DNA from: Bordetella parapertussis
GTDB lineage: Bacteria > Pseudomonadota > Gammaproteobacteria > Burkholderiales > SG8-39
Reading direction: 5' to 3'
DNA length: 64,000 nt
Assembly: GCA_945862265.1 (NCBI GenBank)
Contig: CAMAXP010000002.1
Coordinates: 96,204 to 160,203 of the forward strand
Shown here: piece after piece, positions 41,633 to 55,119 of the stretch
How the letters are laid out: every line of letters starts with the position of its first letter
Position numbering within the stretch: the first letter of the stretch is position 1
Program-made: the position numbers and the translations under genes
The notes under the pieces: model-generated
Databases searched by the model: none
Seen by the model: only the letters and a program-made list of their open reading frames with translations
Told to the model about the DNA's origin: nothing

Positions 41633-41742
41633 GTCTAGTCTCCTGTGTGGGTGAACGTTGCCAATTGTAGATGATGGGCCTTCCCCTGCCGGACTTCCTG
41701 CCGGTCAACGGGTGCGGCTAAAGGGGGCAGGTCAGACCCTGT

Positions 41743-42081
41743 CTAGACCGACAAGACGATGCGAAGCCCGGCGTCAACTTCAGCCAGCAATCGAGGGTTG
41801 AGTTTTCCGATTCGCTCCGTGAGAAACGTCTTGTCCACGGTGATGATCTGAGAGACGTTTGCGACGGACACTTTCGCAAGGCCGGTTCCCTTGACCGGGA
41901 GGCGAACGTTTCCCGGAGCGTCGGCCAAGCGCAGGTTCGATGTAACGACCGCCGCAACAACCGTACTGATGCCGCTGTCATTGAAGCTATTTGCGGAAAC
42001 GATAAGCAACGGCCGTCGGAAGCCAGGGCCAGACCCGGTGGGCTCCGGCAGAGAAGCCCACCAAATCTCGCCGCGGCGCAC
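41743..42081 (-). CDS. type II toxin, MazF/PemK family endoribonuclease
   Basis: 112 aa. RRGEIWWASLPEP...RPLLIVS...VVAAVVTS pattern of the PemK/MazF fold. 1-nt overlap with the upstream antitoxin. Confidence 0.85.
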   Translation of the reverse strand: MRRGEIWWASLPEPTGSGPGFRRPLLIVSANSFNDSGISTVVAAVVTSNLRLADAPGNVRLPVKGTGLAKVSVANVSQIITVDKTFLTERIGKLNPRLLAEVDAGLRIVLSV

Positions 42082-42323
42082 TACCGCTTGCCTCGGGCGA
42101 GTGTGCGATGCTGAAGCAAGGAAAGCTCTGCATCGAGTGATGAGTCCTCTCGACCTGGGCCATAGATCTCGTTGAGGCGGGCCGTTATCAAGTCGTCCTG
42201 GTGCTCATTGACAAGTGCCGCAAGCGCCTTGGAGTAAAGCTCACTTCGAGAAACCCCCAAACGCTCAGCGAGCTGCTCGCCTGAACGAAAAACACGATCG
42301 GGAATTGAGATTGCCGTTTTCAT
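42081..42323 (-). CDS. ribbon-helix-helix (CopG-type) antitoxin
   Basis: 80 aa. MKTAISIPDRVFRSGEQLAERLGVSRSELYSKAL is an RHH N-terminus. Confidence 0.8.
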   Translation of the reverse strand: MKTAISIPDRVFRSGEQLAERLGVSRSELYSKALAALVNEHQDDLITARLNEIYGPGREDSSLDAELSLLQHRTLARGKR

Positions 42324-42372
42324 ATCATAAGTATAACACCGGTTATACCCGCGTAAACTGCCCTTCCACGGG

Positions 42373-42442
42373 GTCTAACGTAGAAGTCATCGGCGCTGCG
42401 CGGCTTTATCGCACAGCGCCCGCGTGGACTGCCGGGTTGGGC
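42373..42442 (-). repeat. attC site
   Basis: Plus strand reads GTCTAAC ... GTTGGGC. Internal stem GGCGCTGCGCG / CGCACAGCGCC with 1 mismatch. It ends 3 nt before the next cassette's stop. Confidence 0.7.
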
Positions 42443-42444
42443 AT

Positions 42445-42987
42445 TTACTTGTTCTCAGAATCATCTTTAACCTGCCTCGATTTCCATTTGGAATAGAAGT
42501 ACGCTCCTCCTGAGACGATCCCCGTAACAGTTGCTGCAACCATGATAACTGGCGCTACCGTCACGATTAGAGGCGCACTCGTTATTCCAGCCGCGACACC
42601 TAAAGCTCCCAAACCAGTTGGTGCTGCTAATGCTGCACCAGCAGCTACCACACCAGAAGTAATGCCTAGTCCCATCGATACTGTTTCTACTTTTTCTGCA
42701 ACTTCTTTGTGATTCTCATCAGCCGCCTTGACTTTAAGAACAACGCGATCAGAAAGCTTCTTTGCCTCACTCGTTGCAGCGGTTGCAAGTTCTTTTACCT
42801 TCGTGAATGCGGCTTTTGTATCTTCATGATCGATAGCGTCACCAATCGCGTGTTGGGCTGATTTTCCAGCGGCTAACGCTACCGCGCTCGCCTTACTCGC
42901 AGCCTCCTGCGCTGATGAAAAATTGCGCCTAGCCAACGACGCAGTATTGGCAGCCAATTCGCTCAGTCTCTCAATTCGAGTTTTCAT
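42445..42987 (-). CDS. cassette protein of unknown function: helical N-terminal domain plus C-terminal glycine-zipper membrane domain
   Basis: 180 aa with RBS GGAGAAGG upstream. Residues 1-100 are A/K/E/S-rich. Residues ~105-165 are G/A/V/T-rich hydrophobic (GLGITSGVVAAGAALAAPTGLGALGVAAGITSAPLIVTVAPVIMVAATVTGIVSGG). AT-rich third codon positions are unlike the host. Confidence 0.7.
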   Translation of the reverse strand: MKTRIERLSELAANTASLARRNFSSAQEAASKASAVALAAGKSAQHAIGDAIDHEDTKAAFTKVKELATAATSEAKKLSDRVVLKVKAADENHKEVAEKVETVSMGLGITSGVVAAGAALAAPTGLGALGVAAGITSAPLIVTVAPVIMVAATVTGIVSGGAYFYSKWKSRQVKDDSENK

Positions 42988-43028
42988 TCCTACCTTCTCC
43001 TGATCCGATGGATTCGCAAATCGGTTAT

Positions 43029-43136
43029 GCCCAACGTATGAGCTTAGCCGTCACTCTTCCCATATCAAGACGTGAAGTGTGCGGGCAAGCGAAGGTCTCA
43101 ACAAACACGTATTCGAACCGTCATGCTTTGTTGGAG
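43029..43136 (-). repeat. attC site (atypical, long; boundaries uncertain)
   Basis: GCCCAAC at 43029 and GTTGGAG at 43130, the latter overlapping the last 5 codons of the GFA gene. I could not trace a clean stem by eye, and the arms share direct repeats (ACGTAT...CCGTCA) instead. Confidence 0.4.
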
Positions 43137-43579
43137 GGAGTCAAGTCTGGTGGCGGGCTGGCGACAAACCCCTTCTGAAACATGGCAATGCCTTCCGGAA
43201 TTGAAACCCAAGGGCGCTTCGATTGAACCCAAATATGCCTGTCAATCTTGAACCAGTCGAGATTATCGAACGTTCCAGCAGCAATCGTTCGCGTGCCGGG
43301 CCGGAGCTCAGCGGTGTGGGAGATAGTTGTTCCGCAGGTGGGGCAGAAATTCATCTTCAACCAACGCCCGCTTTCGCCGGAGCGATGCTCACGCTCCACA
43401 AGTTGCCCTTGAAGGATTTCGACCGACTCCTCAGGAAACGAGGCAAGGACAGCAAAGGCGCTCGCCAGCCTTCGCTGGCAAAACCTGCAGTGGCAGACCG
43501 TACCAACGGCAGGTTTGCCATGCACAACGTATCGAACGGCGCCGCAGGCGCAACCACCAGAATGGGTTTCGTCCATCAT
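43121..43579 (-). CDS. GFA-family (CENP-V / glutathione-dependent formaldehyde-activating-like) zinc protein
   Basis: 152 aa. Cys pattern GGCACGAVRY...CHCRFCQR...CPTCG is characteristic of the GFA domain. Confidence 0.8.
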   Translation of the reverse strand: MMDETHSGGCACGAVRYVVHGKPAVGTVCHCRFCQRRLASAFAVLASFPEESVEILQGQLVEREHRSGESGRWLKMNFCPTCGTTISHTAELRPGTRTIAAGTFDNLDWFKIDRHIWVQSKRPWVSIPEGIAMFQKGFVASPPPDLTPSNKA

Positions 43580-43613
43580 TTGCTCCTAGAGAGAGGCAAG
43601 GGTCATCCGTGAC

Positions 43614-43703
43614 GGCTAACGTTTTGGTGAACGGCGTGCTGAGGTCGTCGCCCGCAATTTTGCACAGTGGCAGCCGGCCTGTCCGTTCCACCTGCAGTTA
43701 GCG
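43614..43703 (-). repeat. attC site
   Basis: GGCTAAC-GTTTTGGTGAACGGCG ... GTCCGTTCCACCTGCA-GTTAGCG with complementary arms. The ParE stop codon lies inside the GTTAGC box. Confidence 0.75.
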
Positions 43704-44006
43704 GGCACGCCTCGGACGACCTGGCCAACTTGAAGGACTGCGTGCGTGATGGAGTACGGCTAGCACGGAAGTCCGTTTCAGCTGAACGACGTAGAAGACG
43801 AGGTACGGAAACCGCGTGATGACAGCTCGTCGGACGTTGCGATAGACGACTGGACTTGCCTGCGGATGTTCACGGACGAACTCCAGCTTCTCCCGCAAGG
43901 CACCCAAGTATTGCTCACCGAGCCCAGGCATCTGTGATTCGTACCATTCGAAGGCGGACTGGATGTCACTTTCAGCCCTGGGACGGAGAATGAATTGCGG
44001 GGTCAT
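43698..44006 (-). CDS. type II toxin, ParE/RelE family
   Basis: 102 aa. ...RPRAESDIQSAFEWY...RRAVITRFPYLVFYVV pattern of ParE-like toxins. 4-nt overlap with the antitoxin. Confidence 0.8.
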   Translation of the reverse strand: MTPQFILRPRAESDIQSAFEWYESQMPGLGEQYLGALREKLEFVREHPQASPVVYRNVRRAVITRFPYLVFYVVQLKRTSVLAVLHHARSPSSWPGRPRRAR

Positions 44007-44230
44007 GAAGCCCGACGAACGCGGGCAAAGACCTCTTCTAAGGAAGACCCGGCGTCGGGATCGGACTCGTACTCCGCTAATCGCCGGTCAAGCTCTTCCT
44101 TCTGCCATTCGGTAAGCGCCAGGGCATCGGGGACGCAAGAGATGCTGTCCCAAATAGCCTCAACGAGATCCACACGTTCCTCCAAAGGAAGGGCGAGGAT
44201 CTCCGCCACCAGTTCATTTTTCATGTTCAT
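44003..44230 (-). CDS. addiction-module antitoxin (TIGR02574-like, ParE-associated)
   Basis: 75 aa. LVAEILALPLEERVDLVEAIWDSI...LTEWQKEELDRRLAEYESDP is the typical 'putative addiction module component' pattern. Confidence 0.75.
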   Translation of the reverse strand: MNMKNELVAEILALPLEERVDLVEAIWDSISCVPDALALTEWQKEELDRRLAEYESDPDAGSSLEEVFARVRRAS

Positions 44231-44255
44231 AGCGTAGCACGTTCGCCAATCTGCA

Positions 44256-44300
44256 CGCTAACGCCGGCCTTCAGCTGCAAGGCAATGTCGGGCGTTCTGG
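44256..44300 (-). repeat. attC site (short, degenerate)
   Basis: CGCTAAC-GCC ... GGC-GTTCTGG. The outer stem ACGCC/GGCGT and an inner CCTTCAGCTGCAAGG hairpin are visible. The right core deviates from GTTRRRY. Confidence 0.4.
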
Positions 44301-44314
44301 GCTCACTCGTGCAC

Positions 44315-45145
44315 CTACGCCTTGCGAGCGATCAACTCAATGGGAGCGACTCTGTTCCGGGAAACATTCTCGATCATGTTTTGAACCTTTGTCGGTGCTT
44401 CCTTCCCCATCAGAATGTGAAGACCGAGGGGCGGGGGACCGTCTGCTACAGCTGAATTTTCTTTGAGACGCTCGAAAAAATCCAGTGCAAATTCTCGACG
44501 ATCTCGCTCACTGACGATCTGGAAGCCTGCAGCCATCAGCGAATGCTTGTAGTTTGCCGGTGACGCCAACGAACTCGCTTTCGCTACGGTTGCCCACGGA
44601 ACCGGGTATTTCAGTTGATCACCACCAACTTCCATGATGTCGTAGATCCCGAAGACCCCACCTGGCCTGAGAACGCGCCAAACCTCCATGGCCAGTGACG
44701 CTTTGTCCGGGATGTTCATACCAACGTGCAGCATGAACGCCTTGTCGACGGTTGCGTCAGGCAAATTCATGGCAAGTGCGTTGCCTTGCGATAGCTTGAC
44801 CCGATTCTCCAGCCCCAGCCAGGAGCAGAGCGTATTCCCGGTTTCAACATATTCTTCTGTCAGGTCCATTCCGGTTACTTGGCACCCATACGTCCGTGCC
44901 GCGAAACGGCTCGCCCCCCCAATTCCACACCCAACATCCAGTACATGATCTTCAGGCCGAATACCAATCTGATCGAGGAAAGAACGTGTCGCCATCCGGC
45001 CGCCGATGTGAAATTCATCTACAGGGGCAAGATCTTCAATGGTGACAGTTTCCGGTGTCTTCCCCAGCTTCTCAACACCGGCACGTATTGCGCTGAGGAG
45101 ATCGCCCCGCGTGTAATGGTTCGCAACCAAGTTCAGATCGATCAT
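44315..45145 (-). CDS. class I SAM-dependent methyltransferase
   Basis: ATG at 45145 behind AGGAGGA. Motif I VLDVGCGIGGASRF and post-I GMDLT. The 34 upstream codons of the ORF-track call are read-through of the attC. Confidence 0.8.
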   Translation of the reverse strand: MIDLNLVANHYTRGDLLSAIRAGVEKLGKTPETVTIEDLAPVDEFHIGGRMATRSFLDQIGIRPEDHVLDVGCGIGGASRFAARTYGCQVTGMDLTEEYVETGNTLCSWLGLENRVKLSQGNALAMNLPDATVDKAFMLHVGMNIPDKASLAMEVWRVLRPGGVFGIYDIMEVGGDQLKYPVPWATVAKASSLASPANYKHSLMAAGFQIVSERDRREFALDFFERLKENSAVADGPPPLGLHILMGKEAPTKVQNMIENVSRNRVAPIELIARKA

Positions 45146-45169
45146 TTGGGTCCTCCTGGTCGTATGCCA

Positions 45170-45260
45170 GCCCAACGTCGTGGTGAACGGCGGGTGCGTG
45201 TAGCGGTTCCGAAGAAGAACAGGACCACTTTCGCCCGTCCGTTCCACCTAAGTGTTAGGC
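45170..45260 (-). repeat. attC site
   Basis: GCCCAAC-GTCGTGGTGAACGGCGG ... CCCGTCCGTTCCACCTAAGT-GTTAGGC with complementary arms. Confidence 0.8.
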
Positions 45261-45273
45261 GCGAAATCAACAG

Positions 45274-45633
45274 TTACTCACGAATACGGACCCGTTCGGG
45301 TTCGATGATCCACAGCCGACCTCGTGTGGGCTCGGTCGCAAGCACCGGCAATGCCGACTTCAGCAAATCCAGGGTGTTCTCGACGCTCTGCGTGTGTGGG
45401 CGCAATACCCAGATGCCCGCGTGACTCGCCGGAGGATAGACACGGATATCGGAGAAATCGAGATCGAAGGTGACAAGGATCCGATCCTCCGCCTGAGAGG
45501 CGTCAAAGACGCGTGGATCGGGGTTGCCTCCCATCTGTTCGTCGAGGACCGTGTGCACGTCATGCCCCGGCTCACGCAGCAAGGCTTCCGCGTCACGAGG
45601 TAGATTCTCGTCAAGCTTGAACCGAGCAGGCAT
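45274..45633 (-). CDS. DUF5615-family PIN-like putative toxin
   Basis: 119 aa. FKLDENLPRDAEALL...ILVTFDLDF pattern (Mut7-C/PIN-like) downstream of a DUF433 gene. Confidence 0.7.
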   Translation of the reverse strand: MPARFKLDENLPRDAEALLREPGHDVHTVLDEQMGGNPDPRVFDASQAEDRILVTFDLDFSDIRVYPPASHAGIWVLRPHTQSVENTLDLLKSALPVLATEPTRGRLWIIEPERVRIRE

Positions 45634-45642
45634 CCTGCAAGA

Positions 45643-45870
45643 TTATGCGGGGATGGGAACGATGCGCTCTCGCGCCAAGTCTGCGGCATAGCTGATCGCC
45701 GCGGGAATATGTTCGGGCCGAAGCGAGGGGTACTGATCGAGAATGCGCTCCGGCGTTTCGCCGGCGGCGAGATTGTCGAGAACGACAGATACCGGTATTC
45801 GTGTGCCGCGGATGCACACTGCTCCGTGCATGATCTGGGGATCGGTCGTGACGTAAGGTTTCCAGTCCAT
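45643..45870 (-). CDS. DUF433-family putative antitoxin
   Basis: 75 aa. DPQIMHGAVCIRGTRIPVSVVLDNLAAGETPERILDQYPSL is the DUF433 signature. Confidence 0.75.
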   Translation of the reverse strand: MDWKPYVTTDPQIMHGAVCIRGTRIPVSVVLDNLAAGETPERILDQYPSLRPEHIPAAISYAADLARERIVPIPA

Positions 45871-45921
45871 CGCAGATGCCTCCGAATATGGCTTTCAATA
45901 TAGCACCGCGCGTTCCTACGT

Positions 45922-46008
45922 GCCTAACGTGTTGTTCTGCGGCGGGCCAGTTGGATGCCAGCATTCGCGAGGCGCCGATGGCCCGTCCGCAGCAACAAAG
46001 GGTTCGGT
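45922..46008 (-). repeat. attC site
   Basis: GCCTAAC-GTGTTGTTCTGCGGCGGGCC ... GGCCCGTCCGCAGCAACAAAGG-GTTCGGT with long complementary arms. Confidence 0.7.
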
Positions 46009-46026
46009 CCCAATGACACAAACATA

Positions 46027-46374
46027 CTACGCCGCTTGCAACAGGAACTCGACCTTCACAGCCTCAAACGGAAACACAATGCTGCCTTCTTCCGTGCGAT
46101 TGAGAACGCCAGCATTAAGCAGGGCGGTAACATCGCCATGAACAGCCTTTACGTCGCGGCCTACACGTCGTGCTGCTTCTCGTATGGAGACTGGACCCGC
46201 GCCGCACAGCGCCTTGAGTAGCTCCCAGCGCTTGGCGCTGAGCACTTTCCAAAGCAGCTCAGGGCTAGCAAAGCTTATACGCGCGGACTTTTGAGATTTC
46301 CCGGTCTTCCAGGATTGCACGAAATCAGACATTGAATCGGCCGGCGAACGCACATCAAGAGTTACGGTTTTCAT
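46027..46374 (-). CDS. HTH transcriptional regulator / antitoxin (TumA-like)
   Basis: 115 aa with a winged-HTH segment (RWELLKALCGAGPVSIREAARRVGRDVKAVHGDV). Overlaps the upstream DUF6516-like gene by 20 nt. Confidence 0.65.
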   Translation of the reverse strand: MKTVTLDVRSPADSMSDFVQSWKTGKSQKSARISFASPELLWKVLSAKRWELLKALCGAGPVSIREAARRVGRDVKAVHGDVTALLNAGVLNRTEEGSIVFPFEAVKVEFLLQAA

Positions 46375-46651
46375 TGTTCCACCTCGCTATGTCTCGTTGA
46401 AAATCAGCGACCAGCTGATCCGGTGTAGTGAACTTGTAGATACTCTCTTTGTCGCCGTAGTGCCTATGGTCACCTTTGCCAACTTCGTTGTCGTAGCGAA
46501 GGACGCACACATCACGCACCACGTAAGCTAGCCTGTACTTGAACCTGTGAGTGGAACCTGCAACAGGCTTCGGGACTTGCCAAAGCACCAACTCCGCGAA
46601 TGCTGCTTCTGAGTATGTGATTCGAGTACGGACAAGCTCGACAGCGTTCAT
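46355..46651 (-). CDS. DUF6516 / TumE-like putative toxin
   Basis: ATG at 46651 (alternative TTG at 46696). WQVPKPVAGSTHRFKYRLAYV...RYDNEVGKGDHRHY matches the pattern I associate with DUF6516. Confidence 0.6.
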   Translation of the reverse strand: MNAVELVRTRITYSEAAFAELVLWQVPKPVAGSTHRFKYRLAYVVRDVCVLRYDNEVGKGDHRHYGDKESIYKFTTPDQLVADFQRDIARWNNENRNS

Positions 46652-46880
46652 GTTGGAGACGATAACAACACAAGGCTTTGTTGTCAATAGCTCCAACGAT
46701 CACGAATGGGGTTATGTGGGGCCGAACTATATTTGGCTGAATTTTTTAGGTGAAAGTTTTCGTTGACACTCTGTGGACCCCGCTCATATCTCAGTTCGAG
46801 ATTCGTGCTCCGCAGTGTCATCCATCCTTGTCTTCAGCACGTTATGCCTGCTTGCCCGAAACCACGAGACCTCCGCAGAC

Positions 46881-47087
46881 ATGGCATCCCCCGGATCGCC
46901 GCCTTCCCCCAAGCCCCGTCTGCTCGATCGCGAGGCGGAGGTGACGGCGTTCCTCAACCACCTTGTGCGGACTCGCGACGTGGCGGCGGCGACGCAGAAC
47001 CAGGCGCTGCCGGAACGGCTCGCGCGGATGAGCGGGACGAATTGGCTGACGGGCTCGCTCCCATGCGGGATAATGGTGCTGCAATGA
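46881..47087 (+). pseudogene. intI: decayed integron integrase remnant (delta-intI)
   Basis: Translation ...[54 protein letters not shown] aligns with three separate pieces of the intact IntI (PPKLLEQ; [27 protein letters not shown]; [14 protein letters not shown]). DNA identity is visible (GAGGCGGAGGTGACGGC, GCGACGCAGAACCAGGCGCTG). All catalytic regions are missing. Confidence 0.7.
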
Positions 47088-48199
47088 GATCCCGACTTCT
47101 ACCGGCGCTGGTACTGGCGCTCGCTTGTGCGACTGCCGGCGCCCAGACCTACCGCTCCGACGAGCACAGCTTCACCGTTACCCGGGTCCTCTCCGGCCTC
47201 AGCCATCCCTGGGCGCTCGCATTCCTGCCGGACGGCCGCATGCTGGTGACCGAACGCGAAGGCCGCCTGCGCATCGCCCGGGACGGCAAGCTGGACCCGC
47301 AGCCGGTCGCAGGCCTGCCGCAGGTCGCGCCGCACGGCCAGGGCGGGCTGATGGACGTGGTTCTGCATCCGAATTACGCGCAGAACAACCTCGTCTACTG
47401 GACCTTTTCGGCGCGCGGGGCCGATGGTTTCGGCACCGAGGTGGCGCGCGGCAAGCTGGTGGGCAACCGCATCGAAGGCGCGGAGGTGATCTTTCGTCAG
47501 AGCCCGAAGGGCGCCACCGGCCGGCATTTCGGCTCGCGCCTCGTGTTCGGCCGGGCCGGGTTTCTCTACGTCACGCTCGGCGACCGCGGCGAGCAGGAGC
47601 GCGCGCAGAAGCCGGACGACCACGCCGGCTCGGTGATCCGGCTGCACGACGACGGCAAGCTGCCTAAAGACAATCCTTTCGTGGGCCAGGCCGGCTGGAA
47701 GCCGGAGAAGTTCACGCTCGGCAACCGCAACCAGCAGGGCGCGGCGCTGCACCCGGCGACCGGCGTGCTGTGGACCCACGAGCACGGCCCGCAGGGCGGC
47801 GACGAGGTGAACGTGATCCGCGCGGGAGCGAACTACGGCTGGCCGGTGATTACCTACGGCGTCAACTACGGCATCGGTACGAAGATCGGCGAGGGCACGC
47901 ACAAGGCCGGCATGGTGCAGCCGGTGCATACCTGGGTGCCCTCCATCGCGCCTTCGGGCATGGCGTTCTACACCGGCGACAGGTTTGCGCGCTGGAAGGG
48001 CGACCTGTTCGTCGGTGCGCTCAAGGACCAGATGCTGGTGCGCCTGAAGCTCGACGGTGAAAAGGTCGTGAAGGAAGAGCGCCTGCTGCGCGGCGTGATG
48101 GGCCGCATCCGGGACGTGAGGGCCGGGCCCGACGGCTACCTGTACCTGGTGACCGACGAGCCCAACGGTGGCGTCGCGAGACTCGAACCGGCAAACTGA
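47084..48199 (+). CDS. PQQ-dependent soluble sugar dehydrogenase (YliI/Asd family)
   Basis: ATG at 47084 overlaps the stop of the intI remnant frame. Signal MRSRLLPALVLALACATAGAQ. Beta-propeller motifs HPWALAFLPDGRMLVTER and HEHGPQGGDEVN. Host-like G+C. Confidence 0.8.
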   Translation: MRSRLLPALVLALACATAGAQTYRSDEHSFTVTRVLSGLSHPWALAFLPDGRMLVTEREGRLRIARDGKLDPQPVAGLPQVAPHGQGGLMDVVLHPNYAQNNLVYWTFSARGADGFGTEVARGKLVGNRIEGAEVIFRQSPKGATGRHFGSRLVFGRAGFLYVTLGDRGEQERAQKPDDHAGSVIRLHDDGKLPKDNPFVGQAGWKPEKFTLGNRNQQGAALHPATGVLWTHEHGPQGGDEVNVIRAGANYGWPVITYGVNYGIGTKIGEGTHKAGMVQPVHTWVPSIAPSGMAFYTGDRFARWKGDLFVGALKDQMLVRLKLDGEKVVKEERLLRGVMGRIRDVRAGPDGYLYLVTDEPNGGVARLEPAN

Positions 48200-50915: not shown

Positions 50916-51587
50916 TCACTGTACTGGTCGCGGCACGGGCGGGTAGTACTGAGGTGCCTCACCGCGACTGAACATGCCGTAATCGCGCATCACCTCAAAC
51001 ACACGAAAGTACTCGGTCGTCGAATCGGCAAAAAGTTTCCGACCAAAGTCGACGCCGGCGTCAGATGACGGCACGTCAATAAGATGCGCAAAAACTCCGG
51101 GTCTGTAGACGCTCTCGAACACGTCACGTTTCCAGGGCGTTTCAACCGACAATTCTCGATTCCGAGATTCCGAGGCGACGACAAAAGTCGGTGGCCGCCT
51201 CTTGGGATCGTTGTACGGACTCAGTCGCTCGGGACGCCACGCCGATTTTTCGAGCCGCTCCTCATGGAGGACCTGTGCGATCCGAATGCGGTAGTCGTCG
51301 AAGACTTTCTCGCGGCCTGCTTCTTGAACCGCATGGTGCTTTGGATCGACCCGCCAAGCGATCATTGATCCCTCGTCCTGCCATATCTGATATGAGAGCA
51401 GGAGATTCTTGCGATTCAAGCTCTTGAACCGGTCGATGAATAGGCAGCCTCCCATGGCTTCCAGGGATGGTTTCAATGAAGCCGCGAGATCCAGATAGCG
51501 ATTGATCTGCCCTTCTTTTATTTGAACTTCGAAAAATTGCGAAATCAAGGCCGTTAGCACCTTATGAGATGGGCAGGAGGTCAACAA
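50916..51587 (-). CDS. cassette protein, tandem ABM-like (antibiotic biosynthesis monooxygenase / Dabb fold) domains; function unknown
   Basis: 223 aa. The first half (LISQFFEVQIKEGQINRYLD...YQIWQDEGSMIAWRVDPKHHAVQ) looks ABM-like, and the second half is of similar length. Start uncertain (TTG at 51587, no clear RBS). Confidence 0.55.
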   Translation of the reverse strand: MLTSCPSHKVLTALISQFFEVQIKEGQINRYLDLAASLKPSLEAMGGCLFIDRFKSLNRKNLLLSYQIWQDEGSMIAWRVDPKHHAVQEAGREKVFDDYRIRIAQVLHEERLEKSAWRPERLSPYNDPKRRPPTFVVASESRNRELSVETPWKRDVFESVYRPGVFAHLIDVPSSDAGVDFGRKLFADSTTEYFRVFEVMRDYGMFSRGEAPQYYPPVPRPVQ

Positions 51588-51728: not shown

Positions 51729-52040
51729 CTACCGCTGCGGAACCAGTCGGATTTCGATATCGCACCCGACCGCCGCGGCATACTTCTTCAGGGAGGTCAG
51801 CGATGGGGCATGTTTGCCAGCTGATTCGAGACGCGATACCGCGCTCTTGGTCGTGCCCATGCGCGAGGCGACCACCTCTTGGGTGAGTCCGGCACGAGCG
51901 CGTGCAGCGAGCATTTGGTTCGCAACGGCGTATTCGACCGCAAGAGCTTCATAAGCGGCCTTGAATCCCCGGCGCTTGCTCGCTTTCTTAAGAAAGGCGT
52001 CGTGGTCGTGCCGAACGGGCTGGTACTTGAGTTCTGCCAT
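51729..52040 (-). CDS. XRE-family HTH antitoxin (HigA-like)
   Basis: 103 aa. HTH LTQEVVASRMGTTKSAVSRLE downstream of a gp49-like toxin. Confidence 0.8.
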   Translation of the reverse strand: MAELKYQPVRHDHDAFLKKASKRRGFKAAYEALAVEYAVANQMLAARARAGLTQEVVASRMGTTKSAVSRLESAGKHAPSLTSLKKYAAAVGCDIEIRLVPQR

Positions 52041-52359
52041 TTAGCACCTCTTTCATGCGTTTGCGAGCCAACTTCAGCTCTCGGTCTGGTGTTTGCCGTG
52101 CTTTCTTAATGAACGCGTGCAGCACCATGACGCGTTGGCCAACGAGAAAGCAATAGAACGCTCGTCCTATGCCCGACTTGCCCTTCGGTCTGAGTTCGAA
52201 GAGGCCATCTCCGAACGGACGCGAATGCGGAAGTCGCAGGTTCGGGCCGTGCTCCGTGAGAAGCTCAACAATCCTTGCATAGTCCGCGAGAACATCTGCG
52301 GCCCACGATTCGATCTCTGCAAGAACTTTCGGATGAAAGTATTCGATGGAGTACGGCAC
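51988..52359 (-). CDS. gp49-like RelE/HigB-family toxin
   Basis: GTG start. IEYFHPKVLAEIESW...LRLPHSRPFGDGLFELRPKGKSGIGRAFYCF...VLHAFIKK. The 3' end overlaps the antitoxin by 53 nt, so the C-terminal ~17 aa may be non-native. Confidence 0.75.
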   Translation of the reverse strand: MPYSIEYFHPKVLAEIESWAADVLADYARIVELLTEHGPNLRLPHSRPFGDGLFELRPKGKSGIGRAFYCFLVGQRVMVLHAFIKKARQTPDRELKLARKRMKEVLNGRTQVPARSARPRRLS

Positions 52360-52409: not shown

Positions 52410-52499
52410 GCCCAACGTCATGGTCAACGGCGGGCGGGTGACGCCGTTCGCGAAAAATTGAAGGCCGCTTTCGCCTGTCCGTTGCACCTATAGTTGGGC
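52410..52499 (-). repeat. attC site
   Basis: GCCCAAC-GTCATGGTCAACGGCGGGCGG ... GGCCGCTTTCGCCTGTCCGTTGCACCTATA-GTTGGGC. Confidence 0.8.
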
Positions 52500-52506
52500 A
52501 TCGTGA

Positions 52507-52806
52507 TTAGACGCGATTTGCTTGAGCATGAAGTTTCAAACCAAGCGCTCCGATTACCTTGAGGATGGTGTCAAAGCCGGGGCTACGCTCGCCTGAAAGT
52601 GCCTTGTATAAGCTTTCTCGGGACAGCCCGGCATCTCGAGCCACCTGTGACATACCTTTCGCGCGTGCTATATCACCGAGCGCTTTGGCAATAAATGCGG
52701 CATCACCATTTGCTTCTTCAAAGCAAGCTTCGAGATAGGCGGCCATTTCTTCCTGAGTTCTGAGATGCTCGGCGACATCGTAACGAGTCGTGGTTATTTT
52801 GGTCAT
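52507..52806 (-). CDS. addiction-module antidote protein (HigA family, TIGR02684-like)
   Basis: 99 aa. YDVAEHLRTQEEMAAYLEA...IARAKGMSQVARDAGLSRESLYKALSG. Confidence 0.85.
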   Translation of the reverse strand: MTKITTTRYDVAEHLRTQEEMAAYLEACFEEANGDAAFIAKALGDIARAKGMSQVARDAGLSRESLYKALSGERSPGFDTILKVIGALGLKLHAQANRV

Positions 52807-53109
52807 TTAGGTTTCTCCAAAAGGATGCGAGCAAACTGCAATGCTGCTTTGATATCTTTGGCCTGAGAGATTTTTGTCTCCTCCAGCCAGGAGGATGACC
52901 AATTCTTGGCCTCGTTTCTTGAAATACACTCGATAGCCGGGGCCATAATCTATTCGCATTTCCGAGACACCCTCTCCAACCGGCTCTACATCGCCGGGAT
53001 TGCCGGCGGCTAGTCGTTCAATGCGAGCTTGGACACAAGCTCTAGCTTGAATATCACGCAGACCATCGAGCCATTGGATGAATGCATCTGTTTTGCGAAC
53101 TTCGACCAT
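52807..53109 (-). CDS. addiction-module killer protein (TIGR02683-like RelE/HigB), apparently frameshifted near the 3' end
   Basis: FIQWLDGLRD...RIERLAAGNPGDVEPVGEGVSEMRIDYGPGYRVYFKKRG..LLAGGDK. After the A5 run (plus-strand T5 at 52871-52875) the family-like tail SQAKDIKAALQFARILLEKPK* lies in the -1 frame. That tail ends in the canonical ATGA overlap with the antidote gene. Confidence 0.7.
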   Translation of the reverse strand: MVEVRKTDAFIQWLDGLRDIQARACVQARIERLAAGNPGDVEPVGEGVSEMRIDYGPGYRVYFKKRGQELVILLAGGDKNLSGQRYQSSIAVCSHPFGET

Positions 53110-53168
53110 GGACGCACCGTATCCGCAAGGCTACACTCTGTCAAGCGTGCGAAGGCGGCTCCTAAGAT

Positions 53169-53225
53169 GCCCAACGTTCGAATTGTTCGGCGCCGGCAGG
53201 CGTCCGCACCAATGAATAGTTGGGC
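53169..53225 (-). repeat. attC site (short)
   Basis: GCCCAAC-GTTCGAATTGTTCGGCGCCGG ... CGTCCGCACCAATGAATA-GTTGGGC, 57 bp. Confidence 0.7.
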
Positions 53226-53249
53226 ATTGCTCCGGCGGAACTGGTCTGT

Positions 53250-53542
53250 TTACGCTCGCGCGCCGCCATAGCCCGGGCGCTTTCTGTCGTGCTTGACGAC
53301 CAAGACCTTAATCTCATCCGCACCGGTGCGATAGATCACAGTGTACGGAAAGATGCTCATCGAAAACCACGTCGGCCTTTGGTACGTGGTGATCCGATAC
53401 CCGGCTGTTCGATGAGGAGATCTGAAAGCCGCTTGAACTCGGCGACGAACCTTGCAGCCAGAACAGACGAACCCTCGCGCTCGTAGAACGCGGCAGCTTC
53501 ATGAATGTCTTGTTCAGCGCCTGGGTGAAGCGTGACCTTCAT
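53250..53542 (-). pseudogene. ParE/RelE-family toxin, frameshifted
   Basis: N-terminal 61 aa (MKVTLHPGAEQDIHEAAAFYE...GIGSPRTKGRRGF) then a stop. The conserved C-terminus SMSIFPYTVIYRTGADEIKVLVVKHDRKRPGYG* continues in another frame. One extra T in the T4 run (plus-strand A4 at 53363-53366) would restore the frame. Confidence 0.75.
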
Positions 53543-53766
53543 TCAGGGAAGCGCGCTTCCAATCTGGCAATAGCAACGTCGAGCGGCACTGACCGAACGG
53601 CGCCTGTTTCAAGCTCTTGTTCTCGCTTGTCCGCAAGGTCATCCCAGGCGGCCTCCGCGTCGCTGTCGACGTCGAGGCTTGCGATCAGTCGATCGAGGAG
53701 CCGCGCTCTGTCTGCCGGTGACAGACGCAGCACCTCGGCTTGCAGCGTTTCAAGCGTAGTTGACAT
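53539..53766 (-). CDS. addiction-module antitoxin (TIGR02574-like, ParE-associated)
   Basis: 75 aa. LQAEVLRLSPADRARLLDRLIASLD...AWDDLADKREQELETG. RBS AGGAGA. 4-nt overlap with the toxin. Confidence 0.75.
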   Translation of the reverse strand: MSTTLETLQAEVLRLSPADRARLLDRLIASLDVDSDAEAAWDDLADKREQELETGAVRSVPLDVAIARLEARFPE

Positions 53767-53844
53767 CCGTATCTCCTCAGTGTCCGCGTTCTTCGAAGAT
53801 CATAGCTTGCCACAAATCCGAAGTGCGCCTGCGGGGGTGACGAC

Positions 53845-54084
53845 GCCCAACGTGAAGTGGGTTGCCGAAAAACCGGAATGCGTTCCGTGGATTTGTAACT
53901 CATTTTGTCATCCCTTTGTAAGGTCGAGACGTTAGGCGCATTCCGGCATAAAAACGTTCTGTTATTCGGGCGAATGCGACTTTGCATTCCGCCAAGTTGC
54001 AACTGACTTTGTCATCGTTTTTTGGATTCAACGCGTTAAGCCTTCCGCAGCATTAAAAATACATGTTATTCGCGGAGGTGGATA
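53845..54084 (-). other. attI region (approximate) and intI / cassette promoter region
   Basis: The first cassette junction reads GTTGGGC on the cassette strand (plus-strand GCCCAAC at 53845-53851). Between it and the intI start is AT-richer DNA with repeated TTTGT(A/C)A motifs. No attC-like hairpin. Confidence 0.5.
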
Positions 54085-55119
54085 GTGTCGATTAAGGCAA
54101 TTCTTTCGGGTGCGGAACCGGCACGTCCCCCGAAGCTGCTGGAGCAGGTGCGCGACGCGATCCGGCGCAAGCACTACAGCCTGCGCACCGAGGACACGTA
54201 CTTCCACTGGATCAAGCGGTTCATTTACTTCCACAGCAAGCGCCACCCCCGGGATCTGGGCGAGGCGGAGGTGACGGCCTTCCTGAACGACCTGGCCAGG
54301 GTGCGGAACGTGGCGTCCGCGACGCAGAACCAGGCGCTGTCGGCGGTGTTGTTCCTATATAAGGAGGTGCTCCGCACGCCGCTGGCCTGGCTGGACGGCC
54401 TGGATCGGGCCAAGCGGCCGGTTCGGGTGCCGACCGTCCTGACGCAGGACGAAGTCCGCCGGCTTCTCGCTCGCATGGAAGGGACCAAATGGCTGATCGT
54501 GAGCTTGTTAAATGGGTCCGGGCTGCGGCTGCGTGAGTGCCTGAAGCTCCGGGTGAAGGACGTAGAGTTTTCGTACCGGCAGATCGTCGTGAGGGATGCT
54601 AAAGGCGCCAAGGACCGGGTGACGATGCTTCCTGAGTCGGTGATCGAGCCGCTCAGGGAGCACCTGGTCCGCGCGAAGGCGTTGCACGAGTCGGACCTTG
54701 CCAGCGGTCATGGTGATGTGGAGATGCCCTACGCCCTGGCGCGCAAGTACCCCAAGGCGGCCTACGAGTGGGGTTGGAAGTTCGTGTTCCCGTCACGCAA
54801 GCTTTCGGTCGATCCGAGGAGCGGCGTGGTGCGGCGGCATCACGTGTATGACGACGTGCTTGGGCGCGCAATCAAGCAGGCGGCGCGTGAGGCGGGGATC
54901 GCCAAGCACGTGAGTTCGCACACCCTGCGCCACTCCTTCGCCACTCACCTGCTGGAGTCCGGTTATGACATCCGCACGGTGCAGGAGCTGCTCGGCCACG
55001 CGAGCGTGGAGACGACAATGATCTATACGCATGTGATGAACAAGGGCGGGCGCGGGGTGCGCAGCCCGCTGGACCGCGTAGAGCAACCGCGGGCGGGGTA
55101 CGCTGGTGCCGGCGCCTAA
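54085..55119 (+). CDS. intI: integron integrase
   Basis: 344 aa, GTG start behind GGAGGTG. Tyrosine-recombinase residues ([25 protein letters not shown]) plus the IntI-specific extra segment [24 protein letters not shown]. Divergent from the cassette array. Confidence 0.9.

Follow-up and report, generated by a model that had tools for sequence, protein, structure and literature searches.

The two toxin-antitoxin (TA) cassettes nearest the attI site of an integron, in a 64,000-nucleotide stretch of contig CAMAXP010000002.1 (assembly GCA_945862265.1; hereafter the window), each carry a frameshifted toxin gene beside an intact antitoxin gene. The host is an uncultured Burkholderiales-type betaproteobacterium, and the locus is a sedentary chromosomal integron. 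By following the same cassettes through public metagenome assemblies, we found that the mutations are real, that intact ancestral alleles exist, that the decayed states are nested, and that other toxins at other array positions have been hit in the same manner. We conclude that both lesions are probably genuine, heritable losses of function, produced by ordinary toxin-first erosion of TA modules that does not require proximity to attI or to its promoter, Pc. An earlier note on this DNA had reported both frameshifts and had described both cognate antitoxins as intact; the coordinates and reading frames check, the alleles recur in many assemblies, and each antitoxin gives an end-to-end match to its family profile.

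The cassette adjoining attI (cassette 1) encodes, on the minus strand, an intact 75-residue antitoxin of the Unstab_antitox/TIGR02574-like type (antitoxin 1; 53539-53766; PF09720 positions 2-52 of 54), whose stop codon overlaps the start of a ParE toxin gene by 4 nt as ATGA. The ParE gene is split (53250-53542, minus strand): in the frame that opens at 53542, its 5' part (53357-53542) ends in GRRGFR after 61 residues, and the 3' part, which begins SMSIF and reads SMSIFPYTVIYRTGADEIKVLVVKHDRKRPGYGGARA, continues in the -1 frame until it is terminated at 53250. With one more base in the plus-strand A4 run (53363-53366), the gene encodes a 97-residue ParE that matches Pfam ParE_toxin over positions 1-87 of 89, while the native 61 residues cover only 1-58 of 89; the repaired protein aligns with ParE2 (8c26) and ParE1 (3kxe) of the PDB over residues 3-91. 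Because the window ParE fails the full-length profile match, and only the repaired or T5 allele passes it, we regard the gene as a pseudogene of a ParE family member.

Natural alleles show what was lost. Aligned with intact copies, the coding-strand T4 run of the window (53363-53366) is a one-nucleotide deletion from T5: the run reads GGTTTTCG in the window (within the ParE context GGUUUUCGAUGA) and GGTTTTTCG in contigs L010, L100-L108 and L115-L118. This T5 is the sole homopolymer of at least 4 nt in the intact ParE gene. Over 683 nt, cassette 1 of L010 differs from that of the window only in its T5 run, so that the one-base repair proposed in the earlier note, to a toxin of about 97 residues, exists as a natural allele, and the exact intact 97-residue protein is present on 12 contigs. 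The note was also correct that a conserved end continues in another frame, but it quoted that end four residues short: the protein terminates in GYGGARA rather than GYG. The 120 best ParE homologs are all single open reading frames (ORFs) of 96-111 residues, 116 of them exactly 97, so the short form is not a conserved native end. A paralogous cassette, 97% identical to cassette 1 (L004-L009), reads GGCTTTTCG at the run and has an intact ParE. This paralog occupies a different locus, flanked by amidase and MauG-type genes, and is followed by two genes, Unstab_antitox and DUF433, without a called toxin partner; the ParE-like tblastn matches beside the former are only weak (26-30% identity) and fall in two different frames. 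Both genes may be further orphan antitoxins.

In the second cassette (cassette 2) the toxin gene comes first. Toxin 2 is a pseudogene of the HI1419 family (TIGR02683, RelE/ParE superfamily; 52803-53109, minus strand) whose native ORF (52807-53109) encodes 100 residues ending in LLAGGDKNLSGQRYQSSIAVCSHPFGET: LLAGGDKN is followed by 21 unrelated residues, which makes a wrong tail of 22 residues. Deleting one base from the plus-strand T5 run at 52871-52875 restores a 101-residue toxin that matches TIGR02683 over positions 2-93 of 95 (131 bits), exactly as the intact orthologous allele does, compared with 2-80 of 95 (114 bits) for the native product. The stop codon of the repaired gene overlaps the antitoxin start as ATGA, while the ATG of the antitoxin immediately follows the TAA of the frameshifted ORF. 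That antitoxin (antitoxin 2; 52507-52806, minus strand) is an intact 99-residue helix-turn-helix (HTH) protein of the HI1420 family (PF21716 positions 2-89 of 90; TIGR02684, 125 bits, cut-off 53.7). A search of PDB sequences returned no structural homolog of toxin 2.

Comparison with intact alleles revises the nature of this second lesion. At the frameshift site (52870-52875, minus strand) the window reads AAAAAT where intact alleles read AAAAG, a change of G to AT with a net gain of one base; the intact allele is GACAAAAGCTCTCAG (GGDKSSQ) and that of the window GACAAAAATCTCTCAG. GGDKSSQ is found in L008, L011, L092-L095, L097, L098, L103, L110, L111, L114 and L120, and also in L113, where toxin 2 is intact at this site although knocked out elsewhere. 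The lesion combines a substitution with an insertion and is therefore not a simple slip from A4 to A5. Removing one A does restore the full-length profile match and the ATGA overlap, as the earlier note proposed, but it does not restore the ancestral sequence. The GGDKISQ that such a repair produces was rejected as the ancestral state: the intact alleles all read GGDKSSQ, and 22 toxin-2 homologs have Ser, Asn or Thr at the position after GGDK, in no case Ile. Lengths and C-termini are conserved in this family, and the tail in the window displaces the near-invariant motif QAKDIK.AL..AR.LS.

To place the two alleles in a population, we recovered the same cassettes by exact-protein look-ups in public metagenome assemblies and re-scored toxin integrity from the DNA; the contig gene tables are inconsistent between sources, and some list no toxin gene where the DNA is intact. 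The 61-residue ParE product occurs on at least 21 contigs, drawn from many independent metagenome assemblies that are mostly of Illumina type. We read T4 directly in L002, L003, L008, L011, L092-L099, L114, L119, L120 and L122, which come from different samples in ENA, Logan and NCBI, and the toxin-2 frameshift in at least five contigs (L001, L002, L003, L096 and L122). Assemblies with these alleles include MEGAHIT-style k141 contigs (ERZ272802xx), GROS21 scaffolds, the Logan accessions ERR3719153, ERR3719165 and SRR24858485, and the genome assemblies GCA_945875985.1 and GCA_029981975.1. The intact T5 and GGDKSSQ alleles are present in the same population, which is the comparison of orthologous cassettes that the earlier note had suggested as a check. 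A search of genome contigs with IntI yielded no genome of the same species, the best match (87% identity) belonging to a Burkholderiales metagenome-assembled genome.

These data bear directly on the simplest alternative, also raised in the earlier note, that both frameshifts are homopolymer errors of sequencing or assembly and that both toxin genes are truly intact. Both sites do lie at short homopolymers. The contig L003/L109 shows 100% identity with the window, of which it may be the source; it gives no independent support and was not counted as independent. But the same alleles come from other samples, studies and assemblers, the state of the alleles tracks their genomic context, and the change in toxin 2 includes a base substitution. 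We consider it almost certain that the frameshifts are not artifacts.

The attI-proximal alleles fall into three states, which form a nested, stepwise series. Both toxins are intact in L103, whose intI and attI are 100% identical to those of the window; ParE is broken and toxin 2 intact in contigs of the L008 type, the commonest state; and both are broken in the window, L002, L096 and L122. A ParE T5 combined with the toxin-2 frameshift was found in no contig. Decay goes one step further in L096, where the toxin-2 frameshift is joined by a nonsense mutation (Y24*) in antitoxin 2, the sole disrupted antitoxin seen. Loss of this antitoxin would be lethal alongside a working toxin, and the mutation is therefore evidence that the frameshifted toxin 2 is dead. 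Elsewhere the antitoxins are strikingly constant: antitoxin 1 differs by 0 or 1 nt across 26 contigs and is disrupted in none, the DNA of antitoxin 2 is identical in 15 of 18 scored loci (several pairs of which come from the same contig) and is disrupted in L096 only, and no scored contig has a disrupted antitoxin with its toxin still intact. In L120, a T4 contig, ParE has four additional substitutions and the antitoxin has none.

The frameshifted toxin-2 alleles also carry changes at conserved positions: R25C and S97L at near-invariant residues and F10V at an invariant one. R25C need not have arisen after the frameshift, since L122 is frameshifted with Arg25 and L108 has Cys25 together with an intact ParE (site 2 is uncovered in this contig). 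The haplotypes are reticulate: those of attI and those of cassette 2 occur in each of the four possible pairings.

Toxin loss is not restricted to these two cassettes. Toxin 2 itself is interrupted by Q27* in an unrelated array (L113, 3699-4001), the ParE of cassette 5 by Y53* in L102, and the DUF5615 toxin of the DUF433/DUF5615 cassette that in other strains follows cassette 1 by Q60* in L010, L099, L101, L104 and L107, while it is open in L105. In L031, a related integron with 73% IntI identity, a BrnT gene lying beyond the first cassette, some 2.0-2.3 kb from intI, is split over two frames at residue 41, with an intact BrnA adjoining. In the window, the remaining nine toxins are full length and match their Pfam models end to end.

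The picture that best accommodates these observations is the following. ParE has lost one T from its T5 run, the only homopolymer in the gene, so that translation ends after 61 residues and the C-terminal third, part of the region that aligns with solved ParE folds, is missing. In toxin 2, the change of G to AT at codon 80 replaces the conserved last 22 residues. The antitoxins would be kept intact because losing an antitoxin is lethal as long as its toxin works, while losing the toxin is costless or beneficial. The order of loss in this population runs from both toxins intact, through ParE broken, to both broken and finally, in one contig, to antitoxin 2 broken as well. Thus the evidence points to toxin-first erosion at a mutational hot spot, as expected from known chromosomal TA systems.

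Several points weigh against so ordinary an account. It takes the truncated products to be non-toxic, as we infer them to be, and the T-run to have been hit recurrently as presumably the most mutable site. Metagenome contigs are consensus sequences, and their counts mirror the abundance of lineages rather than independent events. A -1 slip in the ribosomal P site on U4 would regenerate the exact wild-type ParE, and trace toxin synthesis is therefore possible. Finally, the broken alleles are not scattered evenly. Among contigs with verified upstream junctions, which are not phylogenetically independent, the ratio of T4 to T5 is 8:2 for copies of cassette 1 adjoining attI and 1:8 for copies flanked by attC (Fisher p=0.005). 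In the window, the broken pair is exactly cassettes 1 and 2 of 11 toxins, an arrangement with a post-hoc chance of 1/55, or of 1/21 when only the intI-linked array is considered. Some position-linked selection is possible.

Such selection, one of three options raised in the earlier note, has a rationale: a TA cassette at or next to attI that is transcribed constitutively from Pc would escape the autoregulation of its own antitoxin, the toxin would become costly, and null alleles would be selected specifically at positions 1 and 2. In keeping with this, the identical cassette 1 is intact (T5) where it lies behind HicAB or other cassettes (L010, L100-L102, L105, L106, L108 and L116), and T4 occurs on two attI haplotypes and on the R22H background, which could mean parallel selection. 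A promoter scan found no sigma-70 consensus promoter inside cassettes 1 and 2, its sole match being a weak promoter-like site, the candidate Pc, at the start of intI (54091-54063, minus strand), though the scan is too crude to infer that these cassettes depend on Pc. However, an intact ParE directly adjoins attI in L103 and L117, and in L119 a T4 copy has attC-bounded cassettes on both sides, the same flanks and the same E45Q background being combined with T5 in L116. In most contigs the toxin 2 at position 2 is undamaged, and it is knocked out in the distal context of L113, and the nonsense alleles of the cassette-5 ParE and of DUF5615 are distal as well. The enrichment of T4 beside attI may itself stem from one or two mutations inherited clonally.

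Related integrons do not support position-specific loss either. A tblastn search with the 22 TA proteins of the window against 41 related integrons found TA homologs in only 5 loci, and a Pfam search of ten small first-cassette ORFs from four related integrons added L039, L041 and the BrnT cassette of L032. Among the Burkholderiales integrons so recovered, toxins in cassettes 1-2 are intact in L032 (ParE and BrnT), L039 (BrnT), L041 (HigB-like) and L046 (ParE), a sample too small for a statistic of cassette rank against toxin integrity. We regard selection confined to the Pc-proximal positions as unlikely, and the proposal as not established: toxin loss is pervasive rather than confined to attI, with a possible contribution of Pc-driven expression. 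Because the same cassette is intact at some array positions and broken at others, the cost of Pc-proximal TA expression can be tested with defined natural alleles.

The T-run deserves separate consideration, since both lengths recur on the same backgrounds. T4 and T5 are both found on the reference haplotype, on R22H (L114 versus L115) and on E45Q (L119 versus L116, L117 and L118), as well as on both attI haplotypes; by array context, they share the attI position (window versus L103), the Y context (L119 versus L116) and probably also the D context downstream of HicAB, where T4 is represented by L099. The single-nucleotide polymorphism underlying E45Q is only 44 nt from the run, which makes recurrent slippage a more economical explanation than recombination; short-tract conversion is nevertheless a possible source of both lengths on E45Q. 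These distributions suggest that the T-run is a recurrent site of loss of function, a mutational hot spot where loss is tolerated or favored.

Could the run instead be functional? It might act as a reversible ON/OFF switch between T5 and T4, as the earlier note had suggested for both toxins, or the T4 allele might be leaky through -1 ribosomal slippage at GGU-UUU-CGA-UGA. The sharing of contexts and backgrounds by T4 and T5 would fit a switch, with recombination as an alternative cause. As for slippage, tRNA-Phe re-pairs perfectly one base back and yields precisely GFSMS; in the zero frame the run is followed by CGA, which makes up 6.6% of Arg codons in native genes, and then by UGA; and a hairpin (-25.1 kcal/mol, z=-1.8) begins 8 nt downstream. 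But this hairpin is marginal (10 of 200 shuffled sequences fold as well) and consists of ordinary coding sequence common to intact alleles. An X XXY YYZ heptamer is absent from the zero frame, whose codons CGU GGU UUU CGA UGA allow only a single P-site re-pairing on UUU. Nor is the frameshift conserved among the best homologs, all of them single ORFs.

A switch fares little better. The tract is 4-5 nt long, whereas phase-variable homopolymers typically have at least 7 nt. The toxin-2 lesion is no pure slip and cannot regain the ancestral allele by slippage, and its lineage goes on to decay, having lost the antitoxin in L096. The additional ParE substitutions of L120, set against none in its antitoxin, likewise count against a functional run. 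We therefore judge a functional T-run very improbable. A composite view, in which T5 is a recurrent and possibly reversible slippage site, its T4 OFF state is favored at attI under Pc and residual -1 slippage could leave trace toxin, strikes us as doubtful; if it were true, toxin silencing at the T-run would be what allows an integron to tolerate a TA cassette in an expressed position. Ordinary toxin-first erosion remains our preferred reading of both lesions.

The identity of the two units as cassettes 1 and 2 is confirmed by the integrase, the attI junction and the attC hairpins. The integrase gene intI (54085-55119, plus strand) is intact and encodes 344 residues that match the integron-specific profile TIGR02249 (integrase_gron) over its entire length (positions 1-315 of 315; 469 bits against a cut-off of 265), together with Pfam Phage_integrase and Phage_int_SAM_4. 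The attI region lies between intI and cassette 1 (53851-54084), holds the candidate Pc and is 98-100% conserved in L002, L003, L008, L011, L094-L096, L103 and L114. When copies of cassette 1 in the attI context are aligned with those in attC contexts, homology starts exactly at ..AC|GTTGGGCG, and the same alignment places the junction core GTTGGGC at 53845-53851 (minus strand).

Both units lie on the minus strand, and each has an attC site that shows the RYYYAAC/GTTRRRY cores and folds into an imperfect hairpin. Cassette 1 (53175-53850) is a mobile TA cassette: its unit of 682 nt recurs in other metagenomes in at least three array contexts, 100% identical apart from the T-run, and its boundaries do not change whether it follows attI, the HicB attC or either of two further attC sites. 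Its attC is 57 nt long (53169-53225; hairpin -18.4 kcal/mol, z=-3.8). Cassette 2 (52416-53174) was delimited by its attC cores, has an attC of 90 nt (52410-52499; hairpin -21.9 kcal/mol, z=-2.3) and is also found in the unrelated array of L113. A tyrosine recombinase of integron type with the additional domain specific to IntI, attC cores that fold and cassettes that move between array positions together define an integron.

Within the attI region there are two imperfect direct repeats of about 85 nt (53888-53972 and 53990-54078; 53 of 85 positions identical), both containing TTTGTCATC…CGTTARGC…GTTATTCG. Possible roles for them are integrase binding or that of duplicated attI elements. Among L008/L110, L095, L096 and L117, the 5' end of intI is divergent (84-92% identity) or the gene is truncated, to a fragment of 113 residues in L008, while attI and the first cassettes are nearly identical, a pattern suggesting that the integrase itself has recombined or decayed.

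The cassettes run leftward on the minus strand and are lower in guanine plus cytosine (GC) content (53-58%) than the window as a whole (65%). Beyond cassettes 1 and 2, the intI-linked array holds six others, for a total of eight: Gp49/HTH, an ABM-domain protein, ParE, HicAB, BrnTA-like and DUF433/DUF5615. In cassette 3, the ORF of the Gp49/HigB-like toxin (51988-52359) overlaps that of the HTH antitoxin (51729-52040) by 53 nt, running beyond a TAA-ATG junction in the other frame; so long a C-terminal extension is unusual, but the Pfam match is complete (2-90 of 90) and we scored this toxin as intact. Cassette 4 (ABM-domain, 223 residues, 50916-51587) is carried by the window and by L001 and L003 but is absent from L008, L011, L093 and L114, where cassette 3 abuts cassette 5. 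In other strains cassette 1 follows HicAB, and in L095 a GFA cassette follows cassette 2. The order of the cassettes is thus polymorphic, which indicates that the integron has recently been active.

Further left lies the remnant of a second integron integrase (…ATQNQAL…; 46880-47060, plus strand), which is oriented like the intact intI. To the left of it is a second array (41700-46700, minus strand) with TumE/HVO_A0114, DUF433/DUF5615, a methyltransferase, Unstab_antitox/ParE, GFA, an uncharacterized 180-residue protein and MazEF, which adds five TA modules. A GSDH gene of native GC content (47084-48199) separates the two arrays.

For annotation, cassettes 1 and 2 should be described as toxin pseudogenes beside orphan antitoxins, being neither intact TA modules nor assembly errors. 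Within an active integron, the locus displays successive natural stages of TA decay with unusual clarity.

At the level of protein families, the repaired and orthologous ParE resembles that of ParDE systems (PF05016; 3kxe and 8c26) in aligning over residues 3-91 and in having its antitoxin gene upstream with a 4-nt overlap. In contrast to ParDE, the antitoxin is of the Unstab_antitox family (PF09720) rather than a ParD protein of the ribbon-helix-helix class, and the ParE of the window consists of the first 61 residues only. Cassette 2 is organized like the HI1419/HI1420 addiction module of killer and antidote (TIGR02683/TIGR02684), with the toxin gene first and an HTH antitoxin, and its intact alleles share the ATGA overlap and the conserved motif GGDK[ST][ST]QAKDI; the allele in the window, unlike the HI1419 family, lacks everything after GGDK. 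Contingency loci of Neisseria, Haemophilus and Campylobacter have homopolymer tracts that are typically at least 7 nt long. The T-run resembles these loci in being a coding mononucleotide run that exists at two lengths in the population and opens or closes an ORF, but it is only 4-5 nt long, and the second lesion cannot return to the ancestral allele by slippage.

At the level of the integron, sedentary chromosomal integrons are known to be characterized by TA cassettes, an example being the Vibrio cholerae superintegron (Richard et al. 2024, PMC13108822). As in integrons of this type, intI and attI are followed by an attC-bounded array of type II TA modules (ParE, HigB/Gp49-like, HicAB, BrnTA, DUF433/DUF5615 and MazEF) whose order varies between strains. 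The present case differs in belonging to an uncultured betaproteobacterium of 65% GC, with a short intI-linked array of eight cassettes and a second array behind a degraded intI, and in having two attI-proximal TA cassettes with dead toxins, which are not described in that work. Truncation of the toxin with retention of the antitoxin is the predominant route of chromosomal TA decay (Belot et al. 2026, PMC13617665). The present locus agrees with that pattern in its disrupted toxin ORFs and intact antitoxins, in the coexistence of intact and pseudogenized alleles among close relatives, and in the repeated, independent inactivation of one module. It differs from the chromosomal hot spots of Photorhabdus studied there in that the modules are integron cassettes, the series can be followed allele by allele in metagenomes, and inactivation recurs at one T5 run. 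Toxin-first erosion is thus already known; what is somewhat unusual here is the resolved series of natural alleles and the recurrence at one short run.

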